From a virus (taxonomy: Duplodnaviria > Caudoviricetes), in IMG/VR virus record IMGVR_UViG_3300026549_000038, positions 96,193-160,192 of that record: DNA of 64,000 nucleotides. One strand, written 5' to 3'. The notes beneath the pieces were generated by a model. It made no database searches. It worked only from the letters and a program-made list of their open reading frames with translations, and was not told the origin of the DNA. The position numbers and the translations under genes were made by a program. Of the stretch, positions 12,945-61,103 are shown piece by piece. Each line of letters starts with the position of its first letter. Positions within the stretch are counted from its first letter, which is position 1.

Positions 12945-12970
12945 AAAAGGAAGACATTGTCTTCCTTTTT
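12943..12970. terminator. bidirectional intrinsic terminator
   Basis: AAAAAAGGAAGAC-ATT-GTCTTCCTTTTT between convergent genes. Confidence 0.85.
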
Positions 12971-13730
12971 AATTTCTAAAGTTCTTCATAATATAATCCC
13001 ATTCATCACCAGTAAGGGTTGTTTGCTTGTATGTATAATTCGTAATTTTTGCGTCTAGTAAATCATATATTTTCGAACCGCAACCTGCATCTTTACAAAC
13101 GTCGGAAAGAAACTTTCCGTTTTCAGCCCAAAAAAATTTTTTTATAATTTTTTTTGGAAGATTAGTTATTTCAAATTTATTACTCTTAATAAGTTTTGGG
13201 CATTTATCAATCGTCAGAGTATTTATCGTTTTTGGAAGATAATTAATATCTATTAAGTTTGGACAGTTTGTAAAATGATATCCGACGTATTTGGAGTCTG
13301 TGAATTTTAGATTTTCCAGACCAGACAAAGAAACCAATTCTGAATCTTGTATCTCAATTGTTACTGGCCAAGTGCGAGCGTTCTTTGTATTCATGGTGCA
13401 TCCCAGTGTAAACAACCCTTCGAGATTTTTTATTTTACAATTCCTTAAGTATATGTTTGTTGGGTTAACAATACGAGAAATGCTAAAATTAGGAGTATTA
13501 TCGAGTCCGTCAATATATAGTATGCTACCAATTGGTGCATCTATTTCAATCTTTCCGTTTTTGCAGGTTATGTTTCCCTTTTCCCATATCGAATACTCTT
13601 TGAGAAAGTCGTCTGGATGATATGTATATTTCTTGAACTCTGTCATTACTATATCATTATCAATCTTTTCGAAGTTCGGGTCCTCCGCACCGAACAGAGT
13701 CTCATTCAAATATATTGGTAACTGCTTCAT
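12969..13730 (-). CDS. LRR-like protein with capsid-targeting-like leader
   Basis: MKQLPIYLNE leader; IKNLEGL, LVSLSGL, NCPNL, KCPKL repeats; paralog of 13746..14540. Confidence 0.75.
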   Translation of the reverse strand: MKQLPIYLNETLFGAEDPNFEKIDNDIVMTEFKKYTYHPDDFLKEYSIWEKGNITCKNGKIEIDAPIGSILYIDGLDNTPNFSISRIVNPTNIYLRNCKIKNLEGLFTLGCTMNTKNARTWPVTIEIQDSELVSLSGLENLKFTDSKYVGYHFTNCPNLIDINYLPKTINTLTIDKCPKLIKSNKFEITNLPKKIIKKFFWAENGKFLSDVCKDAGCGSKIYDLLDAKITNYTYKQTTLTGDEWDYIMKNFRN

Positions 13731-13745
13731 AATTAATTCTTTCTT

Positions 13746-14540
13746 TTATTTTTTAAAGTTCTTTATGAGTTGTCTCCACTCATGAGAATATAACTGGAAC
13801 TCACTATTTGCATTTATTTCATATGGGCTACGGGAGTGGCGTTGTTGTAGATCTTCCAAATATATAACGGTTTTCGGACCACAGTCCATCTTCTTACAAA
13901 AATCTATAAAAGATATGCCGTTGTCCTTCCAATAAAACCCTTGGAATCCCGACAATGTCTTCGGAAACTGTGATATATTAAAATTGTTTTTGCCGATGCT
14001 CGGACATTTCACAATAGATAGATGATTCATTACACTAGGTAACTGCCCTAGTTCAGACAATTTATTACAATCGTTTATGAAATACATTGTGTTTTCCGGA
14101 TTCTTGTATTTTAGGTTTTCTAGCCCTTTAATAGAAGTTAGATTGTTACATCTATTTATAAGTATCTCGATTTGATCTCCGGGGCCTGTGTTTTGTATAA
14201 TACAATTTGGGGCAAATATACCTTTGAGATCCTTTATTTTGCTATCTGATATTTGTATAGCGGAACATTGTTCGATACTGGATATATTAAAATCTGGCGT
14301 ATGATCTAGATCGTGTATACGAATTGAACGAGTTAGTGAGGGGTGTGCCGGATGATAAAGCCCAATGATTTTGATTTCGCCGTCTTTGCAAGACACCTGA
14401 ACCGGTGCCCATTTTTGACCACAGTCTACATATTTTTGAAATTCTTCCAATCTCAATTGATCATTAGCAGAATTTACGAAAACGTCCTCGCCGCCACCAC
14501 TAAATAAAGATTCATTCAAATATCTTTGCAGGTTGTTCAT
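13746..14540 (-). CDS. LRR-like protein with capsid-targeting-like leader
   Basis: MNNLQRYLNESLFS leader; IKDLKGI, CNNLTSIKGL, CNKLSELGQLP repeats. Confidence 0.75.
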   Translation of the reverse strand: MNNLQRYLNESLFSGGGEDVFVNSANDQLRLEEFQKYVDCGQKWAPVQVSCKDGEIKIIGLYHPAHPSLTRSIRIHDLDHTPDFNISSIEQCSAIQISDSKIKDLKGIFAPNCIIQNTGPGDQIEILINRCNNLTSIKGLENLKYKNPENTMYFINDCNKLSELGQLPSVMNHLSIVKCPSIGKNNFNISQFPKTLSGFQGFYWKDNGISFIDFCKKMDCGPKTVIYLEDLQQRHSRSPYEINANSEFQLYSHEWRQLIKNFKK

Positions 14541-14591
14541 AAATATAATATGGGTGTTTGATATTTTATACTATATAATAAAACAACTTAT

Positions 14592-15411: not shown

Positions 15412-15621
15412 TTACTGATTGACTACTGCCACGTTTAACTTGGGGTGGTTTTCTGATATGTCTATAAATTTATTTTCAACCGCAACTTTGAATATAATCT
15501 CATTGTTTTCTATAACATAGGACATTATGGTTCCAACGGTATCGATTGGAAAGAGACAGTCACATTTAAAATGTAGTTTCTTTCCAATCATTTGTTTTGC
15601 TATAAACTCTTTAAATTGCAT
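15412..15621 (-). CDS. small hypothetical protein
   Basis: 69 aa, coupled to upstream gene (TGATG overlap). Confidence 0.7.
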   Translation of the reverse strand: MQFKEFIAKQMIGKKLHFKCDCLFPIDTVGTIMSYVIENNEIIFKVAVENKFIDISENHPKLNVAVVNQ

Positions 15622-16325
15622 CAGTTATACTCTTGTTGTTTGATTTTTTTGTGTTTTTTGGAAAGCTTTTCTTTCTTTGGGCTAGGCATTCTTTGAAACG
15701 AATCTCCGCTGCCCAGCTCACCGTTTTCTCCTGGAAGTGCTGGGTCGCCGGCGCCCATGGTATTCCCGGGAGTAGCTCCACCAGCATCTCCACATTCTTT
15801 CACAATATCAAGTGAGGACAGTTCTTTATAAAATACATTTATCAATTCTGGTGATATTTCATATACTGTTTCTTTTGTCATTCCAAATTCCTTCATAGAA
15901 GTCAGTTCTTCTTTCGGGTCGCACTTGTTAACAATTCTTTTTGTGTAATTGTCTATTTCAGAACTACCATCTATCGACGCCCAGTCTCCGCCAATCACTA
16001 TAGTTTTATCAACATTAGCCATATAGATATGTATAGCCCAATGCGGAGCAGTCACTTCGCCGGTTTGAACATTGTCTATGAAAGCAATGTAATTCTTGTC
16101 GTTGTCGATATTATCATAGTCATCTGGTTTTATTATTCCCAGCTCAGAATTGTCTTGTTTACCTGGTTGCTGTTCTGCAACAAAATTTTTGAGTTCTTCA
16201 AACCCATCAGAGAATGTAGACTTACTTTTAAATTTTTTAAAAATATCTGTGAGGTCTATACTTTTAATCATCTCTATAGGATCTTTAAAAATACTTTCTT
16301 TAATATAATTTACCAGCGATTTCAT
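15621..16325 (-). CDS. putative head-internal protein with C-terminal copy of capsid N-terminal motif
   Basis: MKSLVNYIKE leader; C-terminal ATPGNTMGAGDP...GSGD matches MCP ATPLNTMGMGNP...GSGD. Confidence 0.7.
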   Translation of the reverse strand: MKSLVNYIKESIFKDPIEMIKSIDLTDIFKKFKSKSTFSDGFEELKNFVAEQQPGKQDNSELGIIKPDDYDNIDNDKNYIAFIDNVQTGEVTAPHWAIHIYMANVDKTIVIGGDWASIDGSSEIDNYTKRIVNKCDPKEELTSMKEFGMTKETVYEISPELINVFYKELSSLDIVKECGDAGGATPGNTMGAGDPALPGENGELGSGDSFQRMPSPKKEKLSKKHKKIKQQEYN

Positions 16326-16394: not shown

Positions 16395-19300
16395 GTGGAA
16401 AAATTGGAGTCTAAAAAAATAACACTTGAAAAATCGCTGCAGAAGTATAGAGTAATGAATACTCCAACAGAGTATTCATGGAAGCAGCATTTTGTGAAAG
16501 AAAAATTCTCGAAGGATAACGCTCTCGAGCTTAACGAGGAAGATTTTGAGCAGTTTTCAAAAAGACTTGAAGAATGCCAAATAACACTAGGTACTGGTTA
16601 TACAATGCCGGTTGGTTCTCCTTGTAAGATCGGAACTCTAAAGGACTTGGTGAATATAGTCAGAGACCCAAAGAATGAAAAAGTTACAAAGGAACGAAGA
16701 ACAATAGTTTTCAGCAATTCAGCCGGGACGAGACTATCTGGAAAAGACGCATATGCTCAGTGGAATGGATTTCAGACTATAGACTTGGATATCAAAGATA
16801 GTGTCCAGGCAGGCAGGTTAAAAAATCACATATTTCAAAAACTCCACAAATGTAATTGGTTTTTAGGTGTTGGATTTTCTTCTAGCGGGAAAGGCTTACA
16901 CGTGTGGACAAAAATAAGCGTTCCGGAGACAGATGATTATTCAAAAAGAAAACTGTTGTATTTAGTCAATTTCCGCCATAAATATAGTTATGTATATCTT
17001 GCACTTTTAAGTGCAGCAGAATTGTATCTTTTTACAAAAGATGATATTCTGAATTGGATGGACTTAGCTATGGCGCGCCCACAACAGGGAAGTTTGTTGG
17101 GATATGACCCAGCAGTTCTTATCAATTCAAGCTTCTTTGAAGACTTTATATATGTTAACTTTGATAATGTTGACGATATAGGTCATCCTGATGTAGACTG
17201 GGTTACGTACCCAGACCTCAAAGAAATTTTTAAGAGGTGGGAATGGTTCGAAGATGGAGATGGGGATCAAGACAACATCAGTACAAATGTTGTTAGCAAA
17301 GAAGGACCGGACGATCCAAGCAATGTATTAAAGGTCCACTATAAACACTTTGAACGATGGAGACTTGCGAATACACTTGTTGGGTTATTTGGAAAAGATC
17401 AGGGAAAGGCTTACATGAGAATGATATGTTCGAATACTATCCGAGATCAGGAGCTGATCGCAGACTGTGAAACAGCAGCCAGGCACAAAAAACCTATCGA
17501 TCCCTGGGCAGTGCAGAGACTGAATACACAGCATGGGTTTAAAATAAAGCTCAATATTACCAAAGAGCTTAATGAAGACGAGGTATATATAGCGATGGAA
17601 GATGCCGGAAACCCTACTATAATTAAAGAGTCTCCGAACCTGATAAACTTTCATCTTAACAAAAACCAATATCTTGGTGATATCCGAAATGATATACTTC
17701 AAAAAGTCTCAGAGTCTTGTGTTAACATAACTCTTCTAGAAGCCGGTCCGGGGTTGGGAAAAACAGAAATGGTTAAACAGCTGGTTCGAGATGGAAAAAA
17801 GATTATGATGGTTATGCCATTTACGAGTACCATCAAATCCAAAGTAGAGAATGATGACAAATGGTATTATAGTTATGGGAACAGGCAACCGAAACTTAAT
17901 GAGTGTCCTGGGCTGGCTTTGACAATCGATAAATTTTCGTATCTTAACATGATGGATGTCAAAACATCTGGATATGATTATATATTTATAGACGAGAGTC
18001 ACCTCCTGTTCTTGAGTGAGTATAGGCCGGTTATGTCTAAAGTAGTAGACCTGATAAAGAGCTCTGAGGTACCTATTGTGATGATGAGCGGAACTCCTTG
18101 CGGAGAACTGGTTTTCTTCCCAGACGCCACGCACATACATGTAATTAAAGACGATGATAGAATCAAGGAGTTTACTGTTCATATGGTAGATTCCCCGTCG
18201 GATCTTATTTTTCATATGTGCAGAAAGATGGCAGAAGACATCTCGCAAGGAAGAAGGATTCTTTTTCCGACCAACTCGGGAACTCTGTATAGTAAACAGA
18301 TAGAAGCCGCGGTGAACTATTTTCTTAAGAACGACTATCAAATGTTCGAGCCGGTGAACCTCAAATATTATAAAAAGTCTAATATCGGAGAAAAGTTTAT
18401 GGATGATGTTAACTTTGAAAAGACCGTAAAAGATGTGCAAGTTCTTCTATGTTCTAATTATTTGAGTGTTGGTGTAGATGTGATGGATAGGCTCAAGTTT
18501 AGTATATATTTCGCAGACCTGATACTTCCTCATGAGATAGATCAGTTCTGTAATAGATTGAGAAAGAATGACTTATATGCAAATCTTTATATATCAAAAA
18601 ATGATGCAGATGGTAACACTAGAAATCTAAATCATTTTAAACCGTTGAATTTCAAATTAAACGACGAAGAAATAAAGAACATTCATGCAATCTTAAGATT
18701 GTGTAACAATACCATAGAACGCAATCCGATAGAATATAAGTATAACAGTTTGATATCAAGTATCATCTATGATAACAAATTTATAGAATATAACGATGTC
18801 GAAAATAAATATTTCCTTAACGAAACTTCGTATAAGATTCTTCAGTTTGAAAGGAAGTACAGAGATTATGCTCAACAGCTGCCAGTTGTCATGGCTGGTA
18901 TGAAAGCGTATGGATATCGAGTGAAGTCTGAGAACATGAAAAGTTGTACGGAAGAAGGCGATGGACTTTTGTTTACTAACTTAAAGGACATGGTTAAACT
19001 GGCATACGATGAAGGTCTTGAGATGAACTCAGAACATATTAGTGAGTTAATACAAATCATCAATGAAAATGATTTGCAGAATTACAAAGACATATTGGCT
19101 GGCAAATACGATGTCAAGAAAGGAGATAAGTGGGCTATAGATATAAGTAATAAGAAGGTTACGGTTAGAAACATGGAAATATTTGAAAAAGTGGTGCCTA
19201 TATTCATATCTCTTTCAAAACTGTTTAGGTTTTCAGATATACCAAAAATTTTCGAGTTCTGTAGAACCAAGGGAGGAACCTATAATTTTGCTGCCATAAG

Positions 19301-19767: not shown

Positions 19768-20967
19768 ATGAATATACAGGATAAAATTCAACAATATATA
19801 GACCACAATTCACAACTTGTAGAACAGTATGATTCTAATCACGACAATATCCCTTTGGAGTTAAGTGCAGATGATATAGAAGAATCATATATTAGATACC
19901 GGAAATCGGGTGGCCAATTAAATTTACTATCGACATTGGCTTATGCAGTGCAGTATTCTATAGATTATGGCGTGAATATAGTAGACGCATATGACAATCT
20001 GATAGCTAAGGGTTCTGTAGATCGTTCAAATTCGGAAAATGTTATTCAATCATACTTTAAAGAAGTGAATGACATATATAATAAGAATGATAATAATTAT
20101 GACATTGAATATTGCCCAGAAAACCGAGACAAGCTTATTGAGATGAACCTCAAGACCGTAATCAGTATAGCTAAGAAATACCAGGGTCTGGGATTAGATT
20201 TAGCTGATTTGATCAGTGCCGGCAATGTCGGGTTGGTCACGGCTTGGGAGAAATATGACCCATCCAGGATGAAGATTAAAGATCAGATTATCAAAGAGTT
20301 AGAAGATCTTCCGAATAAAATTTCTTCAGTAGATTTCAAGAACATAATCAGTAAATATATGGAATACGGAGACGCCACATTAAAACTCTACGAATCAGAA
20401 ATTTTCAATAAGCAAAAGATAACCAAAGAGGAAGCATTGAAATTTGTAGAAGACAACATCAAAAATGCAAAGTTCAATAGTATTGCAGTAATGTGGATTA
20501 GGGCATATATTCTTATAGAAATAGATAAGTACAGCAGGGTTGTAAAAAAGCCTAAATCCGAAATCATAGCAGACAAAGAACTTCACGGTGCTTATAGGCG
20601 GGAATCTTTAATCAATATAGATGAACCGATAGGCGACGATGACGGTATGACAATAGGGGATAAAATTTTAGGTACAGATGACGATCCCAGTAGTATTGAT
20701 ATCGGAGAGGCTTACGACACATTTAAATCCGGTCTCAAGAAACTTTTAGACGGGGTGAAAACTAGAGACCGAGCAATATTCTTAAAGAAGTTCGGAATCG
20801 GCATTCCAAGACCGATGACTCCTAAAGAAATAGCTGAACAGGAAGAACTTTCAATAGCACGCGTAAGTCAGATACTTCAAAATGTATTGGAAACCATTAG
20901 GAAAAATCAGGTCAAGTATAATATCGATCCTGAGATGATGTATGACGCACTTGAAAAATTCCAATAA
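19768..20967 (+). CDS. sigma70-family RNA polymerase sigma factor
   Basis: Region 2 NLKTVISIAKKYQGLGLDLADLISAGNVGL...EKYDP, AVMWIR; region 4 HTH MTPKEIAEQEELSIARVSQI. Confidence 0.92.
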   Translation: MNIQDKIQQYIDHNSQLVEQYDSNHDNIPLELSADDIEESYIRYRKSGGQLNLLSTLAYAVQYSIDYGVNIVDAYDNLIAKGSVDRSNSENVIQSYFKEVNDIYNKNDNNYDIEYCPENRDKLIEMNLKTVISIAKKYQGLGLDLADLISAGNVGLVTAWEKYDPSRMKIKDQIIKELEDLPNKISSVDFKNIISKYMEYGDATLKLYESEIFNKQKITKEEALKFVEDNIKNAKFNSIAVMWIRAYILIEIDKYSRVVKKPKSEIIADKELHGAYRRESLINIDEPIGDDDGMTIGDKILGTDDDPSSIDIGEAYDTFKSGLKKLLDGVKTRDRAIFLKKFGIGIPRPMTPKEIAEQEELSIARVSQILQNVLETIRKNQVKYNIDPEMMYDALEKFQ

Positions 20968-21047: not shown

Positions 21048-21836
21048 ATGAGTTTAATTGGAATTAGAGGACATAGAGGTAGCGGCAAAAAAACTGTTGC
21101 ATATCTCCTTGGACAGACGATAGAGTATCTGGCAGAGCGTTCAAATCAAACAATAGACATCGAAGAGTTCCGAGAGTATTTTAAACTCTGGTGCAAGGAT
21201 ATTTGTGAGAATGAAGACATTATATATAATATAGATCTGAAACGGGTGTACTTTGACTCATTTGGAGATGCTCCTAGGATTCATGTAAAGATGTTGCTGG
21301 GATGTAACACTGATTGGTTGTATAGTGACTATATGAAAGATCATGTGGTGGTTTGTTTGAATGACTTTACATGCAAAGAGTACGATGAGGTTCCGAGTTC
21401 AGTCAAGACCGCAGCCGAAGTGAACAAACTTATGATTGAAAAGTCTAAGAACGGACCTGCAGATCTCAGCAAAGAAGAACCCATATTTATGACTCTGCGA
21501 GAATTTATACTTTATTTTGGAATCTTTGTTATGCAGATGGGATTTGGGAAAAATGTCTGGGTAAAGTCATACAAAGCCAATTCAAATATGTTTATAAACA
21601 TCTTTAACGAAGAGTATAAATATAGAATATATATGGATATTAAGTCTATCTCCGAGTTAATGTTTGTTAAGGATAGCGGAGGGGTAATAATTAACGTAGA
21701 AAGACCAGGTCATAAAAAGAAAGATACAGAGTTATCATTCAATAACTTTCAAGACGACGATTATAAAATAAAAATCGGGCCTAAACTAGAAGAATTAGCA
21801 GACCCGATTCTAAAAATTGCTCGAGATATTATTTAA
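21048..21836 (+). CDS. deoxynucleoside monophosphate kinase (T4 gp1-like), divergent
   Basis: N-terminal P-loop GHRGSGKKT, SFGD, TLREFILYFG...GKNVWV, GGVIINVERP. Confidence 0.75.
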   Translation: MSLIGIRGHRGSGKKTVAYLLGQTIEYLAERSNQTIDIEEFREYFKLWCKDICENEDIIYNIDLKRVYFDSFGDAPRIHVKMLLGCNTDWLYSDYMKDHVVVCLNDFTCKEYDEVPSSVKTAAEVNKLMIEKSKNGPADLSKEEPIFMTLREFILYFGIFVMQMGFGKNVWVKSYKANSNMFINIFNEEYKYRIYMDIKSISELMFVKDSGGVIINVERPGHKKKDTELSFNNFQDDDYKIKIGPKLEELADPILKIARDII

Positions 21837-22561
21837 GATCTCAGCCAATCCCGCTTGATTTTAGAGTATGTGTCTGCATATGGAGATGTTCGAATAGAGT
21901 TTTCTAAAACACGACTCCAGCGATGCATATCTGCGCGTGCCTTTCTCGAGATTTCTACATCCTCGTTATTTTTAACATCAATATAATATTTTAAATATTC
22001 AACATCTTCGATAAAACTGCAGCGCCTTACAGATAGTATTGTATCTATGCATTTACGGTTAATCTGACTGAGTTTGCCATATAAAATTGAACATATAATA
22101 TCCACCCTTTTGGATGCAATTTCTTTGGGGTAAGCTATAATCATCTTTTTAAGATCTTGTTCGTCATGATTGAGGTTCGGTTTTCCATCCTTCACAACCA
22201 GATCATCAAACTCAAATGAATAACGCCTATCTCCTGGAACTGCATTCGGGAGAGAACGTGCAATATCTTTCATGTTCGAATCTACCTGCTTCAACTTCGA
22301 TGTATTTAAACTAAAATTTGGCAAGTTATTTAAATACAGCTCAACCAAATACTGCGCCAAATCTTTCCCATCTTTGTAGTTATCCTCAAAAAGCGTCAAC
22401 ATATTAAAAGTATCAAGCCAAGCAGCCAAATAATTCATGTATTCAAATTTGGTTTTTGGCAGTTCAGATAGGACTAAAGAATTATTTATGTTTTTAACAG
22501 TACGATTTATGTCACCGTCTGCAAAGAGACTTTCGCTTATATGAGATTGTAATGTTTTCAT
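21833..22561 (-). CDS. hypothetical protein with capsid-targeting-like leader
   Basis: Likely start ATG22561 (MKTLQSHISESLF); the longer track start runs through a terminator. Confidence 0.7.
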   Translation of the reverse strand: MKTLQSHISESLFADGDINRTVKNINNSLVLSELPKTKFEYMNYLAAWLDTFNMLTLFEDNYKDGKDLAQYLVELYLNNLPNFSLNTSKLKQVDSNMKDIARSLPNAVPGDRRYSFEFDDLVVKDGKPNLNHDEQDLKKMIIAYPKEIASKRVDIICSILYGKLSQINRKCIDTILSVRRCSFIEDVEYLKYYIDVKNNEDVEISRKARADMHRWSRVLENSIRTSPYADTYSKIKRDWLRS

Positions 22562-24301: not shown

Positions 24302-24904
24302 TTAATATTCTATATTTATAATAACACTTTTCGATTTAAGATATTTCTGCACATTTTCTATTGTCGGCTCCATGTCTTTTTTTGGTTTTTCTTTTGAGTG
24401 TCTTCCGTTGTAAGCCCAGTAGAAAAATTTACATTCTCTCGGTGCTCCTTCAATTGAATTTAAAAGTCTGTTATGTTGACATTCAAAAACGCGGACTTTC
24501 TTTGGGCACCCTTCAAGACTAGTAAGACAATCACAACAATTTATTGAGAGCCTACTATCAAACTCACAATCAGGTGTGAACACTGTTGTAAGATCAACAC
24601 ATCCCGACGATCTTAAATCTAAACATCTTGCCTTATCGCCAACGAATTGGGAGATTTTATATTTAAGTCCTTTTTCCGGAAACTTAAATATTGACACTCC
24701 ACTCACATTCGAGGGGCAAGTAATCACATATCCTTTCGAATCCAAATCCAATCGGACACCAAGACGCTTCAGTTCACGATATTGATATATGTATTTAGCC
24801 AGTTCATCTATAGCCTCTTGCTTCAACACATTTTCTGTATTTTTGACTATATCGACATTTCCGCTAAAGATACTTTCGTCTATATACTCTTTAATATCCT
24901 TCAT
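24302..24904 (-). CDS. LRR-like protein with capsid-targeting-like leader
   Basis: MKDIKEYIDESIFS; LTSLEGCP, LNSIEGAP repeats. Confidence 0.75.
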   Translation of the reverse strand: MKDIKEYIDESIFSGNVDIVKNTENVLKQEAIDELAKYIYQYRELKRLGVRLDLDSKGYVITCPSNVSGVSIFKFPEKGLKYKISQFVGDKARCLDLRSSGCVDLTTVFTPDCEFDSRLSINCCDCLTSLEGCPKKVRVFECQHNRLLNSIEGAPRECKFFYWAYNGRHSKEKPKKDMEPTIENVQKYLKSKSVIINIEY

Positions 24905-27140: not shown

Positions 27141-27184
27141 TATATTAATATAATGAAAGTCCAACATGTATTTATTAAATATAC

Positions 27185-27211
27185 AAAAAAAGACCTCAGA
27201 GAGGTCTTTTT
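27185..27211. terminator. intrinsic terminator after tail tube gene
   Basis: AAAAAAAGACCTC-AGA-GAGGTCTTTTT. Confidence 0.85.
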
Positions 27212-47185: not shown

Positions 47186-47199
47186 AACAATCTTGTCAA

Positions 47200-47550: not shown

Positions 47551-47572
47551 ACAAATATATATTGTTTTGATA

Positions 47573-49386: not shown

Positions 49387-51705
49387 TTATCTAATTGTTG
49401 AACTAATCTCGCCTGTTCTGTGAATAGTCAACTGATGAACCATCTTACCAGCACCCCGGGCAGGCTCGATGTGTGTATCTAGTACCAGCATCTCGTTGTC
49501 TATGATCTCAGGGGTATTGTTTGTGCTGTCACAGATATTCAAGAAGTCGTATACACCACCATTGTTCTGAACAGTCTCAAGAATACTATCTGCCTTTGCT
49601 TTGATAGTATCACGAAGCTCTTGAGTATTTAACTCCCACTGATAGTTCTGAAGCAAGTTAGCAACTTCATCTGTGAGATAGATAACCAGTTCACGAACAT
49701 GGATTTTACTCAATGCACTTACAGGAGCTTGTTTTGCAGTCTGATTACTATTGATGTAAGTACCAAGTCTCGGTGTGTAAACAATGGCGTTAATTCCTGC
49801 AGGCTCGAGGATATCAAGCTCGCTACGGGCAAATCCATATTCTGGACCAACCATTCCTGTAGCGCTTAGTCTTCCGTAAGTAGGACCAGCAACTATGTAA
49901 TAAGGTTGTCTTGCTCCGTATTTGTTCATGAAGTTATTAGATACCAATCCAACACTTGGAACAATGTTTCTAACTGTGCCATCGCTGAACAATAGTGGAG
50001 TAAAGTATGCACAGTAACTTGCACCGTCACTCTCGCCGGCGATCGGATACTTCTGTACAACAGCGTTCATGTCTACTGTGTGTGCTGTAGTGTCTATAAC
50101 GCTTGAACCGAAGTCCTTAATAGCAGGGAAGTTAATCAATGCAAGTGCATTTTCTTTTGCCTGGGCAAGTGCAGCGAACTTAGCATGTAACGTTGCTGTC
50201 TCAGGGGTAGCCTTAAATGAATCAAGAATATAGTGATATTCAACATCAACCCTGTTAGTCAAAGCCTCATGGATTCCTTTATAATCAAGAACATCCATGC
50301 AAGATCTCATAATCTGAGTTCCTGGAGTACTCTGCGAAATTGTTGTGTAGTTATAACCTTCTACATATCTTTCTTGAATACCCTGATTGTAAATTGGACT
50401 GTTTACATCATTTACAGTTGTCCAGCCATTGTATGGAAGTGTCTTGTATTCAGTCAGAGGGGTCAATGCAGTGTCAAGTCTCAACTCGTTAAGTTTCATC
50501 ATAAGTTTGTGGCTATCGTAATCAGCATTTAGAGCAACATCTATAGAAATATAATTTCCGTTAGCGTCCTTGAAGTAAGGGAATATGATACCTCTATATG
50601 ATCCAATGAATCTGCTATTTGGATCGCGTGCAAGAGCAAGAAGTACGTCAGCATCCTGTCCAAAAGCATCCTTATAGTCTTCGCGAATCTTTGAATAATT
50701 TGCTGCAGGCACTGGTGTTTCGTCGTCATAATCAACAGCAGAAGCAATAGTTGAATCGATTTCGTCAGCCAGTGCTTTAGCAGCAGCACGAACGCTAGCT
50801 TGTTTTTCGGCATCGCTATCAGTATAGTTTTTAGCCATGGTATTCAAAGTAGTTACGTCTTCGAGAGCAGTCTGGATAGTTGCAACTGTAGCTGTAGGGA
50901 CACCTTCAATACCGTGAAGTGGCTTGCCGGTAGCAGTAGCTGCTGTAATTTCAGCATTTACATCAGCAACCATTTTTGCTATATCTGCCGCAGATGGGTA
51001 GAAATACTTACTCAGTGCGCCTGACTTAACCGCGGGTGTAAACTGGCCTTGGAATACAAATATATCTTCGAAATATTCATCGAGATATGTATCTAAGATG
51101 CTTGCGTCTTCCAAATAAGACGGGATTTCATCCACGCTTTCATTGTTGAACCAACTGCGTACTGTTAAGTGATAATTGGTTGTATATGTCTTAGGAGTCT
51201 TACGAATGAATACAGTGGTGCTGTTTTCTTTTGAATCAGTTGCAGTCAAAATACTGTATACATTGTTAAAAGAACTTGCCATTTCTGGAAGATGATCCGG
51301 ATCTAGAGTCCAGAACTTAGTAGTATCATAAAGATCTGTTACATTTACACTGGTTCCTTCTGCCGGCATTGCGGATACAAAATTGTCGGACCCATATGCT
51401 TTAACAGTTTCAGTTGTGAACGGTTTAAGATTCAGTGCAAGAATCGACCCATTGCCTAATGCCTGATCTGAAATCCTATGAAAATACACACCTTTGCGTT
51501 CAAGCCTCTTGCTTGCTTTTCCAAATGTATTAATAAAATCAGTTTTGCTATTTACATATACTGGTGTATTGAACGGTCCCCTTTCGCTGTAACCAATCAC
51601 CAACCTCAATGTCTCTGCTACTTGAGTAGGGACAGTACTTTTATCCCATATAAATCTGTAAATACCACTAGATTTTATACTTTGAAGATGTAATGGAATA
51701 CTCAT
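49387..51705 (-). CDS. gp18: contractile tail sheath protein (T4 gp18-like)
   Basis: SSGIY...GYSERGPFNTPVYV...FG; C-terminal AGPTYG, GINAI, SALSKIHVREL, CDSTNNTPEIID. Confidence 0.93.
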   Translation of the reverse strand: MSIPLHLQSIKSSGIYRFIWDKSTVPTQVAETLRLVIGYSERGPFNTPVYVNSKTDFINTFGKASKRLERKGVYFHRISDQALGNGSILALNLKPFTTETVKAYGSDNFVSAMPAEGTSVNVTDLYDTTKFWTLDPDHLPEMASSFNNVYSILTATDSKENSTTVFIRKTPKTYTTNYHLTVRSWFNNESVDEIPSYLEDASILDTYLDEYFEDIFVFQGQFTPAVKSGALSKYFYPSAADIAKMVADVNAEITAATATGKPLHGIEGVPTATVATIQTALEDVTTLNTMAKNYTDSDAEKQASVRAAAKALADEIDSTIASAVDYDDETPVPAANYSKIREDYKDAFGQDADVLLALARDPNSRFIGSYRGIIFPYFKDANGNYISIDVALNADYDSHKLMMKLNELRLDTALTPLTEYKTLPYNGWTTVNDVNSPIYNQGIQERYVEGYNYTTISQSTPGTQIMRSCMDVLDYKGIHEALTNRVDVEYHYILDSFKATPETATLHAKFAALAQAKENALALINFPAIKDFGSSVIDTTAHTVDMNAVVQKYPIAGESDGASYCAYFTPLLFSDGTVRNIVPSVGLVSNNFMNKYGARQPYYIVAGPTYGRLSATGMVGPEYGFARSELDILEPAGINAIVYTPRLGTYINSNQTAKQAPVSALSKIHVRELVIYLTDEVANLLQNYQWELNTQELRDTIKAKADSILETVQNNGGVYDFLNICDSTNNTPEIIDNEMLVLDTHIEPARGAGKMVHQLTIHRTGEISSTIR

Positions 51706-51799: not shown

Positions 51800-53446
51800 T
51801 TAATATCCGTGTGTTTTCAACGCCACGTCTGCTTTTTGAATGGTCTGTCTGAGTTCAGCGAGGGTATTTGTAAATTTTTCTTTTAAATCCTGGGCTGAAT
51901 TATAGTGTAAACTGCCCACATTTTGTGTTGTAGGGTCAGTTACTTTTAAATCAGAAGCTATGGTCGCACATTTTGACAGAAGCTCAATCACTCCATCCCT
52001 TTCAAGTACAGTTGTACTGAAGTTACGTTTATTCCATTCACTCCTGTATCTGCCAGTTAAAAGTTTTTGGATGGAATCTAAATCATACTTACTCATGTTT
52101 GTCTTTCCGGTAGCGACATCCATAGTCAGTTTAAGATATCTGTTTAAAAGTTTCTGTACCTGATCACTTTCAGCGGATATATCTGAAATTTTCGTAAATT
52201 TTTGTTTTGCGAGGATATCCTTGTATCTCTTTATATTTTCCTGGGCTATTTTTTTATATTGTTCTGCGTCGCCCGGGTTAATCATTCCTGCTCGACTATC
52301 TGCTCTGTTTTTTCTTTTTTTGCGCACATTGTCCGTGTCATAATCGTTCAAATTTATCGGCCAAACCCACAGCAAATCACAATCTGACAAATATTCTTTT
52401 CTCACATCTGAAAATTTGGTCAAGTCTACTCCATATTTCCAAGCTGAGTAATTTATTTTTCCTTGAATATTTATATAAGGGAATCCATCAGTCCTCCCTG
52501 CTCTTCTACCACCTACGGAACCCTTGTGTGGTGTCCCTATTATTATCATTATTTTATTGCCCTTTAATCCGACTATCAGCCCGTTGCTTGTATCTGCACG
52601 GGTTGAAAACATGGAGTTTAACAATTTTTCTTGATCTTTCGAGAGAGAATTGAGACGCATTTCTATAATTTCTGATGATACATTATCCCATTCTATATAA
52701 CTATAAGAATATAAGTTAGTAAATCTATATATAAAATCAGAAAATTTGTTATATACATCCGTTTTGCTTTTTACGAAGTTCCAAATCATTGAAAGTCTAC
52801 CATCTGCAAACGCTTCATTAATTTCATTTTCGTCTTTTTCAACAACATCTTCTTCGGATTCTGCCAAGATGTTCATCGGAGTATTTGTAATATAACTTTT
52901 AATCACTGATTTTTTTATTCGTGTGCCAAGTTTTCTCATAGATATGGTTCCTTCTATTTTCGACGGCATACCTTTAATATCTTTAAGAGATGGGAGGTTT
53001 ATACATACAAAACTACCGTCTATGCTCGCAGGTGCACCAGCCAACGAATTCAACTTTGGGCAGTTGATTATTTCAAGTGAAGCATTGACAAAATCAACAC
53101 CTGTAAATAAATTCCCAAGGTCTTTTATGTTTGGACAATCTTTTATGCAAACTGTTATGTCTTTAACCTTTGAAAATCTGAGACCGGTTGGCCACTCAGA
53201 TTCCTCGAATTTGCTGATAGTGACTTTTGGACCTACACTACCAATAAGGCTACCATCAAGTACCAGGTTTATTGTTGGTGTCTTGGCCAATTTCTTGATA
53301 CGAATAACACGCGTATTAGCTTTTGACTCAGGTATGTTCATATATTTTTTTAAGAACTGTAGAATTACTTCTGTTTCTATTTGTGCAACAGCTGCGTTGT
53401 CATCCGTGGCAAACAAACTCTCTAAAATCTTAGAAAATTTTTCCAT
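51800..53446 (-). CDS. two-domain protein: leader + LRR-like domain + unknown C-terminal domain
   Basis: MEKFSKILESLF; CPNIKDL, CPKLNSLAGAP, LKDIKGMP; acidic linker with LAE/INE. Confidence 0.7.
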   Translation of the reverse strand: MEKFSKILESLFATDDNAAVAQIETEVILQFLKKYMNIPESKANTRVIRIKKLAKTPTINLVLDGSLIGSVGPKVTISKFEESEWPTGLRFSKVKDITVCIKDCPNIKDLGNLFTGVDFVNASLEIINCPKLNSLAGAPASIDGSFVCINLPSLKDIKGMPSKIEGTISMRKLGTRIKKSVIKSYITNTPMNILAESEEDVVEKDENEINEAFADGRLSMIWNFVKSKTDVYNKFSDFIYRFTNLYSYSYIEWDNVSSEIIEMRLNSLSKDQEKLLNSMFSTRADTSNGLIVGLKGNKIMIIIGTPHKGSVGGRRAGRTDGFPYINIQGKINYSAWKYGVDLTKFSDVRKEYLSDCDLLWVWPINLNDYDTDNVRKKRKNRADSRAGMINPGDAEQYKKIAQENIKRYKDILAKQKFTKISDISAESDQVQKLLNRYLKLTMDVATGKTNMSKYDLDSIQKLLTGRYRSEWNKRNFSTTVLERDGVIELLSKCATIASDLKVTDPTTQNVGSLHYNSAQDLKEKFTNTLAELRQTIQKADVALKTHGY

Positions 53447-55928: not shown

Positions 55929-57470
55929 ATGGCATCTTCTTTAAATAATATATTAAAAACTGTAGACAACATTTCAAGTCTAGATAGGTGGACTCAAAAT
56001 AGAGAGTTGACTCATAACCCTCTATCATATTATACTCTTATACAAGACCGACTTAATTTCATCAGGTCTGGGACAAGAAAGGGAAGCGAGTTTAACTATT
56101 ATGATAATCCATCAAAACTGTACTTCAAAATCATGTTTTATTTTTGGAACAGTGATTCTGAATTGGGATCTTCTTATACTGGGTTGTTGGCTCCATCTTG
56201 GTTAAAAAGAACTGATGCAAACTACGAAGCTTCTGATAAAGAATGGGAAAAACAGTCTCAACCAAACTCTATAGAAAATCAAATAACTCAATACTGGAGG
56301 TATAATTCCGCTTGGGGTTATCTGATGAACAATAATGAATTAGAAAGAGCTGAACTATTAAAACAATTTATAAGTTTACTTTCTAATATCTCTAGCGAAT
56401 CCCCGTGGTATTTTCAAGAGGTGTCTGGCCTTGCAGATGCTCTCAAGAGAGATATGCCAGTATCATTCAAAGACGAGCGTAAAAAGATAACTATTAAGTG
56501 TTTACCTGATGCTGTAGATAATCGTATAGCTACATTAATGGATTTATACAGAGCTATAGTGTGGAGCTGGCAGAACAAATGCGAAGTATTGCCTGCTAAC
56601 CTCCGAAAATTTGATATGGGTATATTTATATATAGTACTCCTATCAAGCCAATGCATCATATGTTGCCTAAAGATCCGAACAGCAAAGAACGTTTTGCCC
56701 ACATATCTTCTAGCTCAGAAGGATATCAAACCAGTTATAAGTATATTGAATTTCACAACTGTGAATTTGTATACAACAGTCCTGGACTAGATACTTTAAA
56801 AAATGATAACGGGTTCTCTCCAGAATATTCCATTTCTATAGAGTTCGATGATTGTTACGAACAGAGGTATAATGAATTTATGTTTCGTTATATAGGGGAT
56901 ATGATTGAATGGGATGCTTTACAATCTACTGCTGACATGACATCTTTTAGAAAAAACACATACTCAACAGGAGAGATAAAAGATATTGAAAATCAGTTAG
57001 AAGAATCAAAAAAGATGCTCGAAACTGATGTTAACGAACTTATATTGGCTACGGTGAACAACGAAGATGACAAAGAAAGTCGAGAAAAATATGAAAAGAT
57101 GCATAAAGACAATGATGCAAGGACGAAGAAATCAAAAATCGGTGATGTTGAACGCTGGATAGACAACGCTGAAGAAGAAATAGAAGGAGCAGCAAAGCGG
57201 TGGGTAAACACAAAGATAGCTAGTATAGTTCTTGGAAATACCAATACATATTCTATTCCTCGAATAGCTGAGCAACTGACCGGCCTGCAAACAGGTCGTA
57301 TTCTCGAAACTGCAGATGCTGTAAAAAGCTACACGGAAAAAAACTCAAGAAAAACACTTAGTTTTGAAGGAGTTGGCAACGGGAAGAAGGTTAGAAAAAA
57401 GTTCGATGACTATACAGGTCAGGTTTTAGGTAATATATACAGAGCAAATACAATAGCAAATAATTTATAA
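55929..57470 (+). CDS. putative baseplate/tail-tube initiator protein
   Basis: PWYFQEVSGL, ITIKCL, LPANLRKFDM, IEFHNCEF resemble tube-like domains; late motif upstream. Confidence 0.5.
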   Translation: MASSLNNILKTVDNISSLDRWTQNRELTHNPLSYYTLIQDRLNFIRSGTRKGSEFNYYDNPSKLYFKIMFYFWNSDSELGSSYTGLLAPSWLKRTDANYEASDKEWEKQSQPNSIENQITQYWRYNSAWGYLMNNNELERAELLKQFISLLSNISSESPWYFQEVSGLADALKRDMPVSFKDERKKITIKCLPDAVDNRIATLMDLYRAIVWSWQNKCEVLPANLRKFDMGIFIYSTPIKPMHHMLPKDPNSKERFAHISSSSEGYQTSYKYIEFHNCEFVYNSPGLDTLKNDNGFSPEYSISIEFDDCYEQRYNEFMFRYIGDMIEWDALQSTADMTSFRKNTYSTGEIKDIENQLEESKKMLETDVNELILATVNNEDDKESREKYEKMHKDNDARTKKSKIGDVERWIDNAEEEIEGAAKRWVNTKIASIVLGNTNTYSIPRIAEQLTGLQTGRILETADAVKSYTEKNSRKTLSFEGVGNGKKVRKKFDDYTGQVLGNIYRANTIANNL

Positions 57471-57507
57471 CCGATTTATTATTATAATTAAAAAAAATTA
57501 TCTATCA

Positions 57508-58152
57508 ATGAAACATTTACACGAATTTATAGTAGAAAGTGCTACCAATTTAAAGGTAAATTCGAAGGCTGCCGCAAAGAGCAGGGCGCTTACCGAGCTG
57601 AAAAAATATTCCTATGACAACTTGGATACGAGAGGCCGTAAAACTAGTGTTTGGGAACTTGGATTCTTATCCGAAACAGCTAACGGAATCGTTGTTGAAT
57701 TTCCAAAGACTAAGTCCGACTGCAAGTTGTATATCTGTGATGTAAAGAAGCTGAATGTTCCATTTAATATTTGTAAGCTTTCTGGGAACGGTGTGGTAGA
57801 CATTATTGAAACTGGTCTTACTTCACTCGAAGAAGTTTTCACCGCAGACTGCAAGGGAGCAAAGAAAGTAGATTTGTATCTTTGGGGCAATAAGGATTTA
57901 GTATCACTGAAGAACTGTCCAGATTTAGTTAATCATTTTACCAGCGAGTATAATGAGAAGCTGGACGACTGGGAAGGCGCGCCTAAGAATTGTCACGAAT
58001 TTGAATACTACGATTCCTATAAGGGGATTTCTTATAGCAACCCTTCAATTGGTTGGGGAGGAGATAGTTATAATGATAAGATGGCCCGCAGACGTCAGCG
58101 AATGCAAGCATTCGATGAATGGAAAGAACACATTGATAAGTGGACTATTTAA
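57508..58152 (+). CDS. LRR-like protein with capsid-targeting-like leader
   Basis: MKHLHEFIVES; LTSLEEVF, LVSLKNCP, WEGAP. Confidence 0.75.
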   Translation: MKHLHEFIVESATNLKVNSKAAAKSRALTELKKYSYDNLDTRGRKTSVWELGFLSETANGIVVEFPKTKSDCKLYICDVKKLNVPFNICKLSGNGVVDIIETGLTSLEEVFTADCKGAKKVDLYLWGNKDLVSLKNCPDLVNHFTSEYNEKLDDWEGAPKNCHEFEYYDSYKGISYSNPSIGWGGDSYNDKMARRRQRMQAFDEWKEHIDKWTI

Positions 58153-58173
58153 TCAGGTTCGTGCACAATTTCA

Positions 58174-58203
58174 AAAAGACATCTTCATAGAGATGTCTTT
58201 TTT
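58174..58203. terminator. intrinsic terminator
   Basis: AAAAGACATCT...AGATGTCTTTTT. Confidence 0.8.
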
Positions 58204-58220
58204 GTTATTATATATATGTT

Positions 58221-58658
58221 ATGAAATCATTAGCAGAATACGTAGTTAAAAATTTCGGGATATATGATCCGGCCATCAGTCATGGGTTTATATTAATTAA
58301 ACCTGGAGAAGACTCTCACACTCAGGAAATTATAGAGATGTTTGAAAATGAGGGTTGGACTGTTTGTAAAATGAGAACAAAGGTCCTGCTCAGAAGCGAG
58401 GCACAGAAACTCTATGAACCGCATAAGAAAGAAGAATGGTTTAAACCGCTGGTCGAATACATGACCAGTGGTCCTTGTACTGGTATCATTATCAGTCATA
58501 ATGGGTGGGCAACGGATAAAAAAGACTTTAAAGAAATTGCAAAAATCAAAGATGTGGTTCGTGAAAAATGGGGTGAAAGCGAAATGAGAAATGTTTTACA
58601 CAGTTCTGATAGCGAAGAAAGATTTAAAATAGAAGCTGGTATATTTTTCTGGCTGTAA
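58221..58658 (+). CDS. ndk: nucleoside diphosphate kinase
   Basis: LIKP, LYEPHKKEEWFKPLVEYMTSGP, RNVLHSSDS (catalytic His). Confidence 0.9.
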   Translation: MKSLAEYVVKNFGIYDPAISHGFILIKPGEDSHTQEIIEMFENEGWTVCKMRTKVLLRSEAQKLYEPHKKEEWFKPLVEYMTSGPCTGIIISHNGWATDKKDFKEIAKIKDVVREKWGESEMRNVLHSSDSEERFKIEAGIFFWL

Positions 58659-58680: not shown

Positions 58681-59430
58681 ATGGAAGATCTTAAATTATA
58701 TGTTAACGAATCATTGTTTTCTGATAATGATGAGAATGCTGTTATCCAATCCGCTGAGGAACAAATAGATAAAGAAAAAACCGAAAAATTGTTGAATTGG
58801 CCTGGTGTCAACTTCCGTGAATTGCATCGTCGTGGTTCGATAATAAAATATGAGAACGGGGGACTATCAATGTTCATCAACGAACCGGACTTATTGATTG
58901 TTTTCTCAGATATTCCAAGTTCTTTATTGCCATTGAACATTGAGCGTATAGTATTATCACCAAAAGTAAGACGATCTGCAAGAGTAATAATATTGTTCCG
59001 CGATTTTAAAATTAAAGATTGTACGGAGTTGTTCACCCCGAACTTTGATGATAATATGAGTGCTAATCCTAACTGTGAGTTGGATATATCTTTCAGTGGA
59101 GTTTCTTTAAATAATTATAAGGGTCTTCCTCAGAAAGTGGCGAAATTTGCAGAGAATGTGGAGGGTTATATGCCATACAATGTAAATTACTTTAAACAAC
59201 ATTATAAAGGAATCCCTCAAAACATATCACGTCAATTGGTGTTGGCGGATAAGTCTGCTCCCAGACGCAGATATGATACTACCATACTTAACTCCGGTGA
59301 TCCGCTTGTCTATAGTGGTGTGAATATTGAGAATCTGGAAAAGATTAAAGTAGTATATGACTATTTAGATCCAAATTGTGAAATAGCTAAATATATGTTA
59401 AAACAAATTAAACGAGCAGAGCAAAAATAA
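58681..59430 (+). CDS. divergent LRR-like protein with capsid-targeting-like leader
   Basis: MEDLKLYVNESLFS; IKDCTELFTPN, LNNYKGLP, YKGIP. Confidence 0.7.
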   Translation: MEDLKLYVNESLFSDNDENAVIQSAEEQIDKEKTEKLLNWPGVNFRELHRRGSIIKYENGGLSMFINEPDLLIVFSDIPSSLLPLNIERIVLSPKVRRSARVIILFRDFKIKDCTELFTPNFDDNMSANPNCELDISFSGVSLNNYKGLPQKVAKFAENVEGYMPYNVNYFKQHYKGIPQNISRQLVLADKSAPRRRYDTTILNSGDPLVYSGVNIENLEKIKVVYDYLDPNCEIAKYMLKQIKRAEQK

Positions 59431-59490
59431 AATAAGGAGTAATTTATAGTTTGATCTGATTTTCAAACATCATGTGTTTATTATTTATAC

Positions 59491-60345
59491 ATGGATAGAT
59501 CTATCAACATAACAAATACCTGTGGGAAAGCCGGTGTATCTTGGACCGCATCAGTAGAAGATAATGTGGACTTGGAGTTTATTCAAAGGGTTCAAGCCGA
59601 AGTGACACAGTCATGTGCCCTCCCATTCGCCGTCCCGGCTGAGCGAATCCCTGAATATATTATCCAAGCTGCACAATACTTTTGGGAGACTTGTGACTTT
59701 GCAGTAGAGGAGAGATATTATATTGTAAAAAATAGTGATATTTGCAAAGGCAATAAACTTAATAAAATAGTTCAACTCCCAAAACAAGTTATGGGTGTAC
59801 ACGGAGCATATAAGACTCGGTCCGCTATGAGATATGGTACTATGGGAGACTTTAGTCTTGAGAGGATGATGATGAGCAGCTACAGCATGTTTGGTGGAGT
59901 CGGCGCTATAGGTGGAGGACTCAGTGCAGCAGGAAATGGTCCTGGGGCAGCAGGTTACTCTCTTGCAGATGTGGTGACTGCTATGTATGAAGTTGACACA
60001 TTTAACCAAACCCTTAATGCTCCACTCACATATAATTATAATTATTTGAGCAATAAACTAGTTTTATTAGGAGATCTCGGCTATCAGGATATATTAGTAT
60101 GCTGTAATGTAAGATGTCGAATACAAGACCTTTATAATAGTTATTACTTCTTCAGATATGTTGTAGCTTTAGTCAAGAAGGCGCTCGGGTTTATATATGG
60201 TATGTATGAATTTAAACTACCTGGAGGAGTGACTATCAATTATTCTAAACTTGACGAACAAGCGAATGATGAAATGGAAATGGTTAAGGAGTGGATAGAG
60301 AATAACAAAGCAGTAGACTACTTCTTTATGCCTAATACACTTTAA
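59491..60345 (+). CDS. gp13: neck protein (T4 gp13-like)
   Basis: LPKQVMGV, YNYN...KLVLLG, RYVVALVK, LPGGVTINY. Confidence 0.8.
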   Translation: MDRSINITNTCGKAGVSWTASVEDNVDLEFIQRVQAEVTQSCALPFAVPAERIPEYIIQAAQYFWETCDFAVEERYYIVKNSDICKGNKLNKIVQLPKQVMGVHGAYKTRSAMRYGTMGDFSLERMMMSSYSMFGGVGAIGGGLSAAGNGPGAAGYSLADVVTAMYEVDTFNQTLNAPLTYNYNYLSNKLVLLGDLGYQDILVCCNVRCRIQDLYNSYYFFRYVVALVKKALGFIYGMYEFKLPGGVTINYSKLDEQANDEMEMVKEWIENNKAVDYFFMPNTL

Positions 60346-60380
60346 GTTATTAAGAACAAATAAAAATAAATTAATAAATT

Positions 60381-61103
60381 ATGAAACCTTTAAATTTATA
60401 TTTGAACGAAGGTATAAACGAGAATTTTATTCGAAGTACATTCGATCGCATAAAAACTAATAAAATGTATAAAAAAACACACGCCGATAGATTTGAGAAA
60501 ATACAAGCACCAAAATATATCGTGCAGGGATTTAATAAAATGATTAAGTCGGATTCGTTTAACCTTCAAGAGTTTAAAGAATATCTGGTTTTCGTTAATA
60601 ATTGGCGAATGGAAGAGGTGCTTAAAAAGCATCCAAAATATCGCGACGATAAAAATTTTCAAAAAGAATTTATGTTCAATTCGGACTTTGACGAAGATCA
60701 AACTGTCCAGTTTTTAGTAGGAAACTATTGTATAACCATTGCCGTGGGACGGGAGACTCAATATTCTGCATATGTTGAAATAGATAATTATAAAAACAAT
60801 GGAGGTGGAGGTATGCAATGGTGGCTTGGGACATGGCCAGTTTATAAGCAGGTTCCAGACCATGTACTCGAATACCCGATTTCATTTTCTGGTGCATTTG
60901 ATGCGGATGATTATAAATTAGGTCCAGATGAAGATGGAGAAGAAGATACTGATGTTTGGAAACTGGATTGGGTTAAAAAAATAGTTGCAGCTTATAAACC
61001 ATTTGGAGATCTTGCATTTGGACATCTTTTCGCAAAAAGCGAAAAAAAAGCAATAAAAAGATTGAAAGATGCATTCACAATACTTGAATCTATAGCTAGA
61101 TAA
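60381..61103 (+). CDS. hypothetical protein with capsid-targeting-like leader
   Basis: MKPLNLYLNEGINE. Confidence 0.7.
   Translation: MKPLNLYLNEGINENFIRSTFDRIKTNKMYKKTHADRFEKIQAPKYIVQGFNKMIKSDSFNLQEFKEYLVFVNNWRMEEVLKKHPKYRDDKNFQKEFMFNSDFDEDQTVQFLVGNYCITIAVGRETQYSAYVEIDNYKNNGGGGMQWWLGTWPVYKQVPDHVLEYPISFSGAFDADDYKLGPDEDGEEDTDVWKLDWVKKIVAAYKPFGDLAFGHLFAKSEKKAIKRLKDAFTILESIAR

Follow-up and report, generated by a model that had tools for sequence, protein, structure and literature searches.

A ten-residue leader resembling the T4 capsid-targeting sequence on proteins of a bovine gut phage

A common leader among the structural genes

The DNA considered here is a window of 64,000 nucleotides, positions 96,193-160,192 of a single virus record of 160,192 bp (IMGVR_UViG_3300026549_000038), and the element in question is a short peptide leader shared by the N termini of a series of its proteins. 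Coordinates are those of the window unless described as genome positions. DNA near-identical to that of the phage is present in bovine gut metagenomes from several studies, and the host is probably a Bacteroidota bacterium of the rumen. The window codes for a T4-type structural gene set (capsid, portal, sheath, baseplate wedge, and protease), along with a DNA polymerase of family B and a sigma factor.

The gene call of the whole genome was scanned for proteins starting M-x-x-[LIVM]-x-x-[YFH]-[ILV]-x-E. Seventeen genes were found to carry the strict form of the leader: 12 lie in the window, and the other five form a tandem group at genome positions 690-3989, beyond its limits. In all 17 the leader begins at Met1 and ends with Glu10, at the extreme N terminus and within the 10-19 residues expected of a T4-type capsid-targeting sequence. 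Each of the twelve window starts named by the original prediction (13730, 14540, 16325, 22561, 24280, 24904, 41127, 47185, 47550, 57508, 58681, and 60381) carries the motif and Glu10, and the five looser leaders placed at 30336, 42343, 43738, 53446, and 58221 exist as degenerate or shifted versions. The genes concerned are listed below, with proteins grouped by the part that follows the leader; LRR-like denotes resemblance to leucine-rich repeat proteins.

12969-13730, minus strand: leader gene, 253 residues; Glu10 followed by T-L-F; LRR-like superfamily (hhalign probability 86% to the leader-stripped family B profile)
13746-14540, minus strand: leader gene, 264 residues; Glu10 followed by S-L-F; LRR-like superfamily, paralog of 12969-13730
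15621-16325, minus strand: leader gene, 234 residues; Glu10 followed by S-I-F; singleton body, no family
21833-22561, minus strand: leader gene, 242 residues counted from an ATG at 22561; belongs to family A together with genome 690-1358 and 1993-2757
24026-24280, minus strand: leader gene, 84 residues; Glu10 followed by Gly; singleton
24302-24904, minus strand: leader gene, 200 residues; reference member of LRR-like family B
41127-42335, plus strand: leader gene, 402 residues; RNA-ligase-like/DUF6267-like body, G-G-A-S-G-H directly after Glu10
46547-47185, minus strand: leader gene, 212 residues; LRR-like family B; adjoins the protease gene
47200-47550, minus strand: leader gene, 116 residues; singleton
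57508-58152, plus strand: leader gene, 214 residues; LRR-like family B; missing from a related strain
58681-59430, plus strand: leader gene, 249 residues; LRR-like superfamily
60381-61103, plus strand: leader gene, 240 residues; singleton
51800-53446, minus strand: variant leader, one residue shorter (I-L-E at residues 7-9, then S-L-F); 548 residues with an LRR-like part
42343-43713, plus strand: degenerate leader (Asn10; L-L-E at residues 14-16, then Ser); 456 residues, phrog_1462; candidate prohead core protein or cargo
43738-44994, plus strand: degenerate leader (Gln10); 418 residues, rich in Glu and Lys and including a hydrophobic segment; immediately upstream of the protease gene and a candidate for the prohead core
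58221-58658, plus strand: nucleoside diphosphate kinase (NDK), its PF00334 match (7.5e-22) starting at residue 22; preceded by a leader-like extension of 20 residues (Lys10)
29965-30336, minus strand: degenerate leader (Lys10); 123 residues

The motif lies well above chance: against its 17 N-terminal occurrences, only one of 860 internal Met positions fits the pattern, and without the Met the motif has a frequency of 6e-4 per residue. A clustering of all N-terminal 14-mers that made no use of the motif grouped 18 of them into one component; 87 pairs reached the threshold, compared with three in a control of internal 14-mers. After Met1, the information content is greatest at position 7 (3.79 bits), followed by positions 10 (3.05), 4 (2.51), and 8 (2.41), and then by positions 2, 13, and 11. 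The consensus reads M-K-x-[LI]-x-x-Y-[ILV]-x-E, with Ser or Gly next; the 16 strict leaders that were tabulated all have Ile, Leu, or Val at position 8, Glu at position 10, and Ser, Gly, or Thr at position 11.

Conservation acts on the leader peptide and not on the DNA, because the codons used for Ser11 vary (AGT, AGC, TCT, and TCA), position 4 is spelled by five different codons, and the 40 bases upstream of the leader genes differ from gene to gene. Only slight differences in leader DNA separate the tandem genes at genome 690-3989.

The leader genes are confined to the two arms of the genome that hold the structural genes (0-22 kb and 98.8-160 kb), in which 17 of 63 genes carry it, compared with none of 88 elsewhere (hypergeometric probability ~1e-7, in which the tandem copies are not independent). 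The leader is absent, as originally stated, from the genes for polB, sigma, capsid, portal, sheath, and baseplate. Variation between strains is seen at one locus: in run X4, which comes from another sample, a DNA contig links position 57470 to 58220 with nine other letters between, and so is exactly without the leader gene 57508-58152, a cargo gene that not every strain possesses. RNA-library contigs cover leader and head genes alike, although such contigs prove neither transcription nor expression rank.

The tagged proteins and the joint behind the leader

The bodies of 18 proteins (the 17 with a strict leader and the product of 51800-53446) were compared by BLASTP and by profile after the first 16 residues had been cut off. 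Ten belong to one LRR-like superfamily (genome 1367, 2771, and 3402; window 24302, 57508, 46547, 12969, 13746, 58681, and 51800), three form family A (genome 690 and 1993; window 21833), and five are singletons with hhalign probabilities ≤1% against the family B profile (window 15621, 24026, 41127, 47200, and 60381). Around seven distinct body types thus stand behind the leader, with hhalign probabilities between families of ≤1%, and the idea that it is attached to otherwise unrelated proteins holds to that extent; the original wording, "many unrelated proteins", was an overstatement given that one superfamily supplies ten of the 18 and another three. The separation of leader from body is clearest between genome 1993 (family A) and genome 2771 (family B), which share an identical 15-residue start, with three of 45 bases differing, ahead of unrelated bodies. 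In the NDK, the leader-like tag precedes a complete Pfam domain, and the orthologs of this enzyme in related phages have the full leader with Glu10. The tag is modular, although paralog expansion inflates the gene count.

The AlphaFold 2 (AF2) model of the 24302 protein is a β-solenoid with a mean predicted local distance difference score (pLDDT) of 90.4; residues 1-20 lie at 53-60, and the leader appears as a short, low-confidence helix ahead of the solenoid. The best neighbors of this model in VIA-align are all LRR domains, at Z scores of 6-7.2, too low to exclude an arrangement that is simply common. A Foldseek search of family B against the PDB returned nothing at E ≤0.001, family A (21833-22561) produced no usable match in the Atlas, where its stored model is poor, and neither Pfam nor PHROGs provided a family for most cargo bodies. 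The median isoelectric point (pI) of the cargo is 6.7.

The ligase-like protein encoded by 41127-42335 offers a natural comparison at the boundary between leader and body. It belongs to a large family, with 689 word-indexed matches, many carrying PF09414 RNA_ligase, and its Atlas neighbors are DUF6267 clusters. The conserved body starts with G-G-x-x-G-H, and all 62 distinct N-terminal extensions of close homologs, of 5-27 residues, have [ILV]-x-E just before it. A survey of this joint covered the 150 best-listed representatives of clusters formed at 50% identity. Fifteen are leaderless and start M-G-G, and in the two such forms that were checked, an in-frame stop lies 5 and 11 codons upstream; the contigs that carry leaderless genes are only 2.7-4.2 kb long. 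Where the extension is short, [ILVM]-x-E stands at the joint in 39 of 42 representatives, with lengths that vary, and where the domain lies inside a longer protein it does so in 71 of 83. Many of these internal joints read [ILV]-x-E-[SG]-[IL]-L-x-E, echoing the E-S-[IL]-[LF] that begins at Glu10 of the leader, and several of the long forms themselves begin with the same kind of leader.

Because the leaderless forms start right after the equivalent of Glu10, the ligase-like body can do without the leader residues; its boundary coincides exactly with the predicted cut, and the motif tracks that boundary whatever lies ahead of it. This comparative evidence supports a putative processing joint directly after Glu10.

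The ligase-like domain is often C-terminal in proteins of 500-1750 residues, with [ILV]-x-E directly ahead of it, and many long forms start with a cytidylyltransferase-like domain homologous to the product of window gene 40573-41130, which lies just upstream of 41127. At nine joints Cys replaces Glu (L-L/T-C before G-G).

The prohead protease, related phages, and genomic surroundings

The genes of the head and tail, one for a candidate core or scaffold protein, and that for the sigma factor are as follows.

45047-46489, plus strand: S77/S80 prohead protease; its fused C-terminal region is scaffold-like and carries six W-I-x-E-E-[YF]-[SA]-P repeats
22632-23942, minus strand: 436-residue protein of no known family; 21 [ILV]-x-E compared with 9.6 expected (z 4.3), the second-highest excess
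32919-34640, minus strand: major capsid protein (phrog_28442 and phrog_138)
49387-51705: tail sheath
61154-62995: portal protein
19768-20967: phage sigma factor

The presence of a gp21-like protease at 45047, as originally predicted, is borne out by matches above cut-off to PF03420 Peptidase_S77 (36.9 bits, cut-off 27) and PF20034 Peptidase_S80 (35.4 bits, cut-off 23.4) and by phrog_207 at 1.5e-40, so that a protease of the gp21 family is encoded in the same genome as the leader. His73 and Ser127/Ser128 are invariant in the protease alignment (A3). Its own N terminus is leader-like, with I-F-E at residues 7-9 followed by T-L, reminiscent of the L-I-E at the same residues of T4 gp21; in relatives the equivalent is L-V-Y-E ending at residue 10, followed again by T-L.

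No other protein of the genome exceeds expectation for [ILV]-x-E as far as does the protease-scaffold protein, in which 34 were observed and 13 expected from shuffles (z 6.8). The protein with the second-highest excess, encoded by 22632-23942, may be a prohead core or scaffold protein. Units of the W-I-x-E-E-[YF]-[SA]-P type occur in 6-10 copies in all 13 related proteases and resemble the core of the leader (aromatic-[ILV]-x-E), a likeness which suggests that the leader may imitate the scaffold W-I-x-E-E-F repeat. The aromatic-[ILV]-x-E motif occurs 107 times in the proteome, 16 times at leader position 7 and 8 times in the protease-scaffold protein. After the protease domain, every ortholog has a K-L-x-L-N/K stretch resembling the K-L-H-L-N-K that directly follows Glu10 in some relatives. 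The capsid protein has two candidate cleavage sites ahead of its conserved shell domain, I-x-E (residue 18) and [VIM]-x-E (residue 42), and both are kept in each of the 14 relatives. Like the excess in the protease-scaffold protein, these sites point to [ILV]-x-E as the putative cleavage rule of the phage. When the protease-scaffold protein (A3) was modeled in complex with the first 45 residues of the family B leader protein, the score was 0.00, which weighs neither way.

The scaffold unit of the orthologs is a tandem 12-residue Q-N-W-V-x-E-E-F-A-P-E-V, encoded in one relative (L007) by a 36-base tandem DNA repeat of 7.9 copies. A tandem DNA repeat was looked for in the protease gene of the window and none was found; its repeats are visible at the protein level only.

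Related IMG/VR contigs of 130-240 kb, with proteases 32-64% identical to that of the window, have up to eight tagged genes within 10 kb of the protease, and whole related records contain 15-39 matches to the pattern compared with 0-7 for a reversed control. Pfam matches among the tagged proteins of these relatives comprise DUF285 (six proteins), NDK (3), AAA_33/Zeta-type kinase (2), HAD (1), and RNA_ligase (1). Further afield, the capsid proteins nearest to that of the phage in the phage collection are those of an uncultured 462-kb phage, Tenacibaculum phages PTm1 and pT24, Sphingomonas phage PAU, and the Prevotella Lak phages, at 32-38% identity. The exact leader pattern is not enriched in PTm1 (0 matches), in Lak-A1 (10 matches compared with 6 in the control), or in a 217-kb relative with a capsid protein 36% identical (5 compared with 4), and it is not clearly enriched in LR756500 (18 compared with 7). 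In its exact form, the tag is therefore specific to the clade. Neither a megablast search of 45047-49288 nor a tblastn search of the 24302 cargo found a match in the phage collection, and no published description of such a leader was found for this phage clade.

The heptamer T-T-A-T-T-A-T is ~11-fold enriched upstream of genes and precedes the capsid, protease, sheath, and baseplate genes together with seven leader genes, among them 21833-22561, where it lies 13 nucleotides upstream. Of the 49 genes in the 98.8-160-kb region, 24 have the heptamer, compared with 3 of 59 in the 54.9-98.8-kb region; it occurs at two preferred distances from the start codon (13 nucleotides and 27-45 nucleotides), mostly before structural genes, and may be a late promoter read by the phage sigma factor (19768-20967).

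Two other families with shared N termini were noted. One consists of five tandem genes at genome 62.6-64.8 kb (62611-64764), of which four start M-C-L-Y/T at residue 1 and the fifth does so from an internal Met; these look like whole-length paralogs, not carriers of a portable tag. The other comprises five genes with similar starts, mostly M-T-Q/R-E-E-K-x-L-L-L-K-D-L. Together, the two families sit at genome 62611-64764, 84951-85355, and 88193-88552 and at window 308-571 and 1085-1495. Several large homing-endonuclease-like genes (phrog_3339 and phrog_559) lie within 24941-32792 and 47573-49288, regions that also hold a duplicated nuclease and methyltransferase pair. Ahead of the window, at genome ~69543-70914, a radical-SAM gene that appears QueE-like from its N-terminal sequence adjoins a QueD-like gene, and the pair suggests a 7-deazaguanine DNA modification pathway.

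A proposed capsid-targeting propeptide and its alternatives

Mullaney and Black are said to have described, in 1996, the capsid-targeting sequence of T4 on the internal proteins IPI, IPII, and IPIII and on Alt (reviewed in PMC9026906 and PMC3012670). In the T4 record (NC_000866), IPII and IPIII start M-K-T-Y-Q-E-F-I-A-E followed by Ala, and IPI has a 19-residue version of the leader ending I-T-E. The same record contains a CTS-like start outside the known internal-protein genes: gp61.1 (18966-19130), a hypothetical protein of 54 residues, begins M-K-T-F-K-E-F-I-K-E, CTS being the common short form of capsid-targeting sequence. Asp in place of Glu10 prevents processing in T4 but leaves targeting intact. 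The first ten residues of IPIII suffice for incorporation into the head, residues 4 and 7 acting mainly in targeting and residues 8 and 10 in processing; gp21 cleaves after L/I-x-E and itself has L-I-E at residues 7-9 (PMC9026906). The concept of the capsid-targeting sequence and its use on varied T-even cargo are already published (PMC3012670, PMC9026906).

The four most conserved positions of the phage leader (7, 10, 4, and 8) are the functional positions mapped in T4, in the same register: the information at positions 4 and 7 marks the targeting determinants at the level of sequence, and the cleavage motif followed by a small residue is present in the 16 tabulated leaders. The likeness to IPIII had been predicted, and with equal length, register, and functional positions 4, 7, 8, and 10 it is closer than was claimed. 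The two tags are alike in their ten residues, M-K start, hydrophobic or aromatic residues at 4 and 7, Ile at 8, Glu10, and small residue at 11, as they are in the presence of a gp21-family protease in the same genome and in their attachment to otherwise dissimilar proteins. They differ in number, with 17 tagged genes here and up to ~39 in relatives compared with a handful in T4 (the original count of three internal proteins understated the T4 cargo, to which Alt, gp67, and gp68 belong as tagged and packaged proteins). They differ also in cargo, which is LRR-like and enzymatic here (at the median pI given above) and consists of small basic proteins in T4, and in the conserved extension at residues 11-15; the rumen phage, moreover, is uncultured.

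Two further systems invite comparison. Repoila et al. reportedly described, in 1994, polymorphic internal-protein loci of T-even phages in which different bodies stand behind a conserved capsid-targeting sequence. This arrangement (cited in PMC3012670) is matched here by unrelated bodies behind a near-identical leader in tandem genes and by a cargo gene present or absent between strains (57508-58152), but the T-even loci are confined to one or two hyperplastic sites, whereas the genes described here are dispersed over the structural arms. The ejection and inner-body propeptides of phiKZ, 201phi2-1, and SPN3US are mostly 80-130 residues long, with the motif S/A-x-E (PMC5694885); these phages likewise have paralogous families of head cargo with conserved N termini and a gp21-related protease cutting after Glu, whereas the tag of the rumen phage is short and of the T4 type, L/I/V-x-E.

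On balance, we favor the reading that the leader is a capsid-targeting propeptide of the T4 type, by which a protein would be docked, cleaved, packaged, and injected. Judging from the sequence comparisons above, the tagged proteins probably enter the capsid and are carried into the cell along with the DNA. An amphipathic N-terminal helix, hydrophobic at position 4 and aromatic at position 7, would dock the new protein onto the scaffold core during prohead assembly; the gp21-family protease would then cut after [ILV]8-x-Glu10, freeing inside the head a mature protein with Ser or Gly at its N terminus, and this cargo would leave the head with the DNA at infection. The tag is portable, being found here on the LRR-like family, a second family, a ligase-like enzyme, and orphans and in sister phages also on NDK, a P-loop kinase, and a HAD protein.

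Several observations weigh against this interpretation. Residues 11-15 are conserved as well (S-[IL]-F-x-G here and K-L-H-L-N-K in some relatives), which the simple loss of a 10-residue tag leaves unexplained. The [ILV]-x-E ahead of the ligase-like body could be a habit of linkers instead of a cut site. NDK, kinases, and ligase-like cargo are cytoplasmic enzymes, of a kind not known to be packaged by T4. The heptamer is not significantly commoner before leader genes (7 of 17) than before others (31 of 134; p = 0.14), so that only its regional co-location holds. Finally, the phage has no cultured relative, and the nearest capsid protein in the phage collection is only 38% identical.

The conservation of residues 11-15 would fit more easily with a leader that is never removed, a docking helix that gathers proteins not at the prohead but at some other common partner, for example a host target or a factory for replication or transcription; AF2 places residues 4-12 in a helix detached from the body, and several of the cargoes are nucleotide or RNA enzymes. 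We regard this as unlikely, though the strongest of the alternatives: it leaves unexplained the invariant Glu10 with its [ILV]8, the leaderless ligase-like proteins that start right after Glu10, the motif at fused internal joints, and the match to the positions mapped in T4.

Cleavage might, on the other hand, serve the timed activation or turnover of proteins in the cytoplasm and have nothing to do with loading of the capsid. The logic of the cut site would then be the same as in the capsid-targeting interpretation. Characterized proteases of the gp21 family, however, work inside the prohead (PMC5694885, PMC9026906), that of the phage is fused to a scaffold and so tied to the head, and the leader genes sit among structural genes; the chance of a purely cytoplasmic role appears slightly smaller still.

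With ten bodies in one superfamily, three in another, and nearly identical leader DNA among the tandem genes at genome 690-3989, the shared start might instead reflect no more than inheritance within multigene families and local gene conversion, with no common function. This is improbable when around seven unrelated body types are tagged, canonical enzyme domains included, when dispersed copies are spelled with different codons, and when the tag persists in relatives whose proteases are only 32-64% identical. That the tag serves for recognition by a modifying enzyme, such as a radical-SAM/SPASM maturase, is very improbable, as the sole PF04055 radical-SAM match in the genome lies in the QueE-like gene beside the QueD-like gene and no SPASM-type maturase, and hence no partner for the tag, was seen in it. 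Each of these alternatives accounts for less of the evidence than does a T4-type capsid-targeting propeptide.

A broader proposal can be put forward, though we hold it only tentatively. A clade of rumen phages with genomes of 130-240 kb may use one portable module ([aromatic]-[ILV]-x-E followed by S/G-[IL]-[LF]) as an address-and-release label, by which dozens of swappable proteins per genome would be loaded into the head and travel with the DNA as a pre-made arsenal of LRR-type binders, NDK, P-loop kinase, HAD phosphatase, and ligase-like enzyme. In other lineages, the same module would join domains into polyproteins cut by the head protease, and the tag may mimic the scaffold's own W-I-x-E-E-F repeat.

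Because the ligase-like protein occurs without a leader, with the tag, and in fused form, it gives comparative work a direct handle on cargo released by a protease. If the tag works as it does in T4, a large and fast-evolving set of proteins would be injected before any gene is expressed, and the targeting code of T4 (positions 4, 7, 8, and 10) would be ancient and common to very distant phages of the T4 type. A short, predictable tag would also offer a means of finding head cargo in metagenomes and of loading foreign proteins into capsids. For the biology of these phages, it would open an unexplored layer of phage-host conflict in the rumen, in which LRR-type binders and RNA-repair-like enzymes would be candidate counter-defense cargo.

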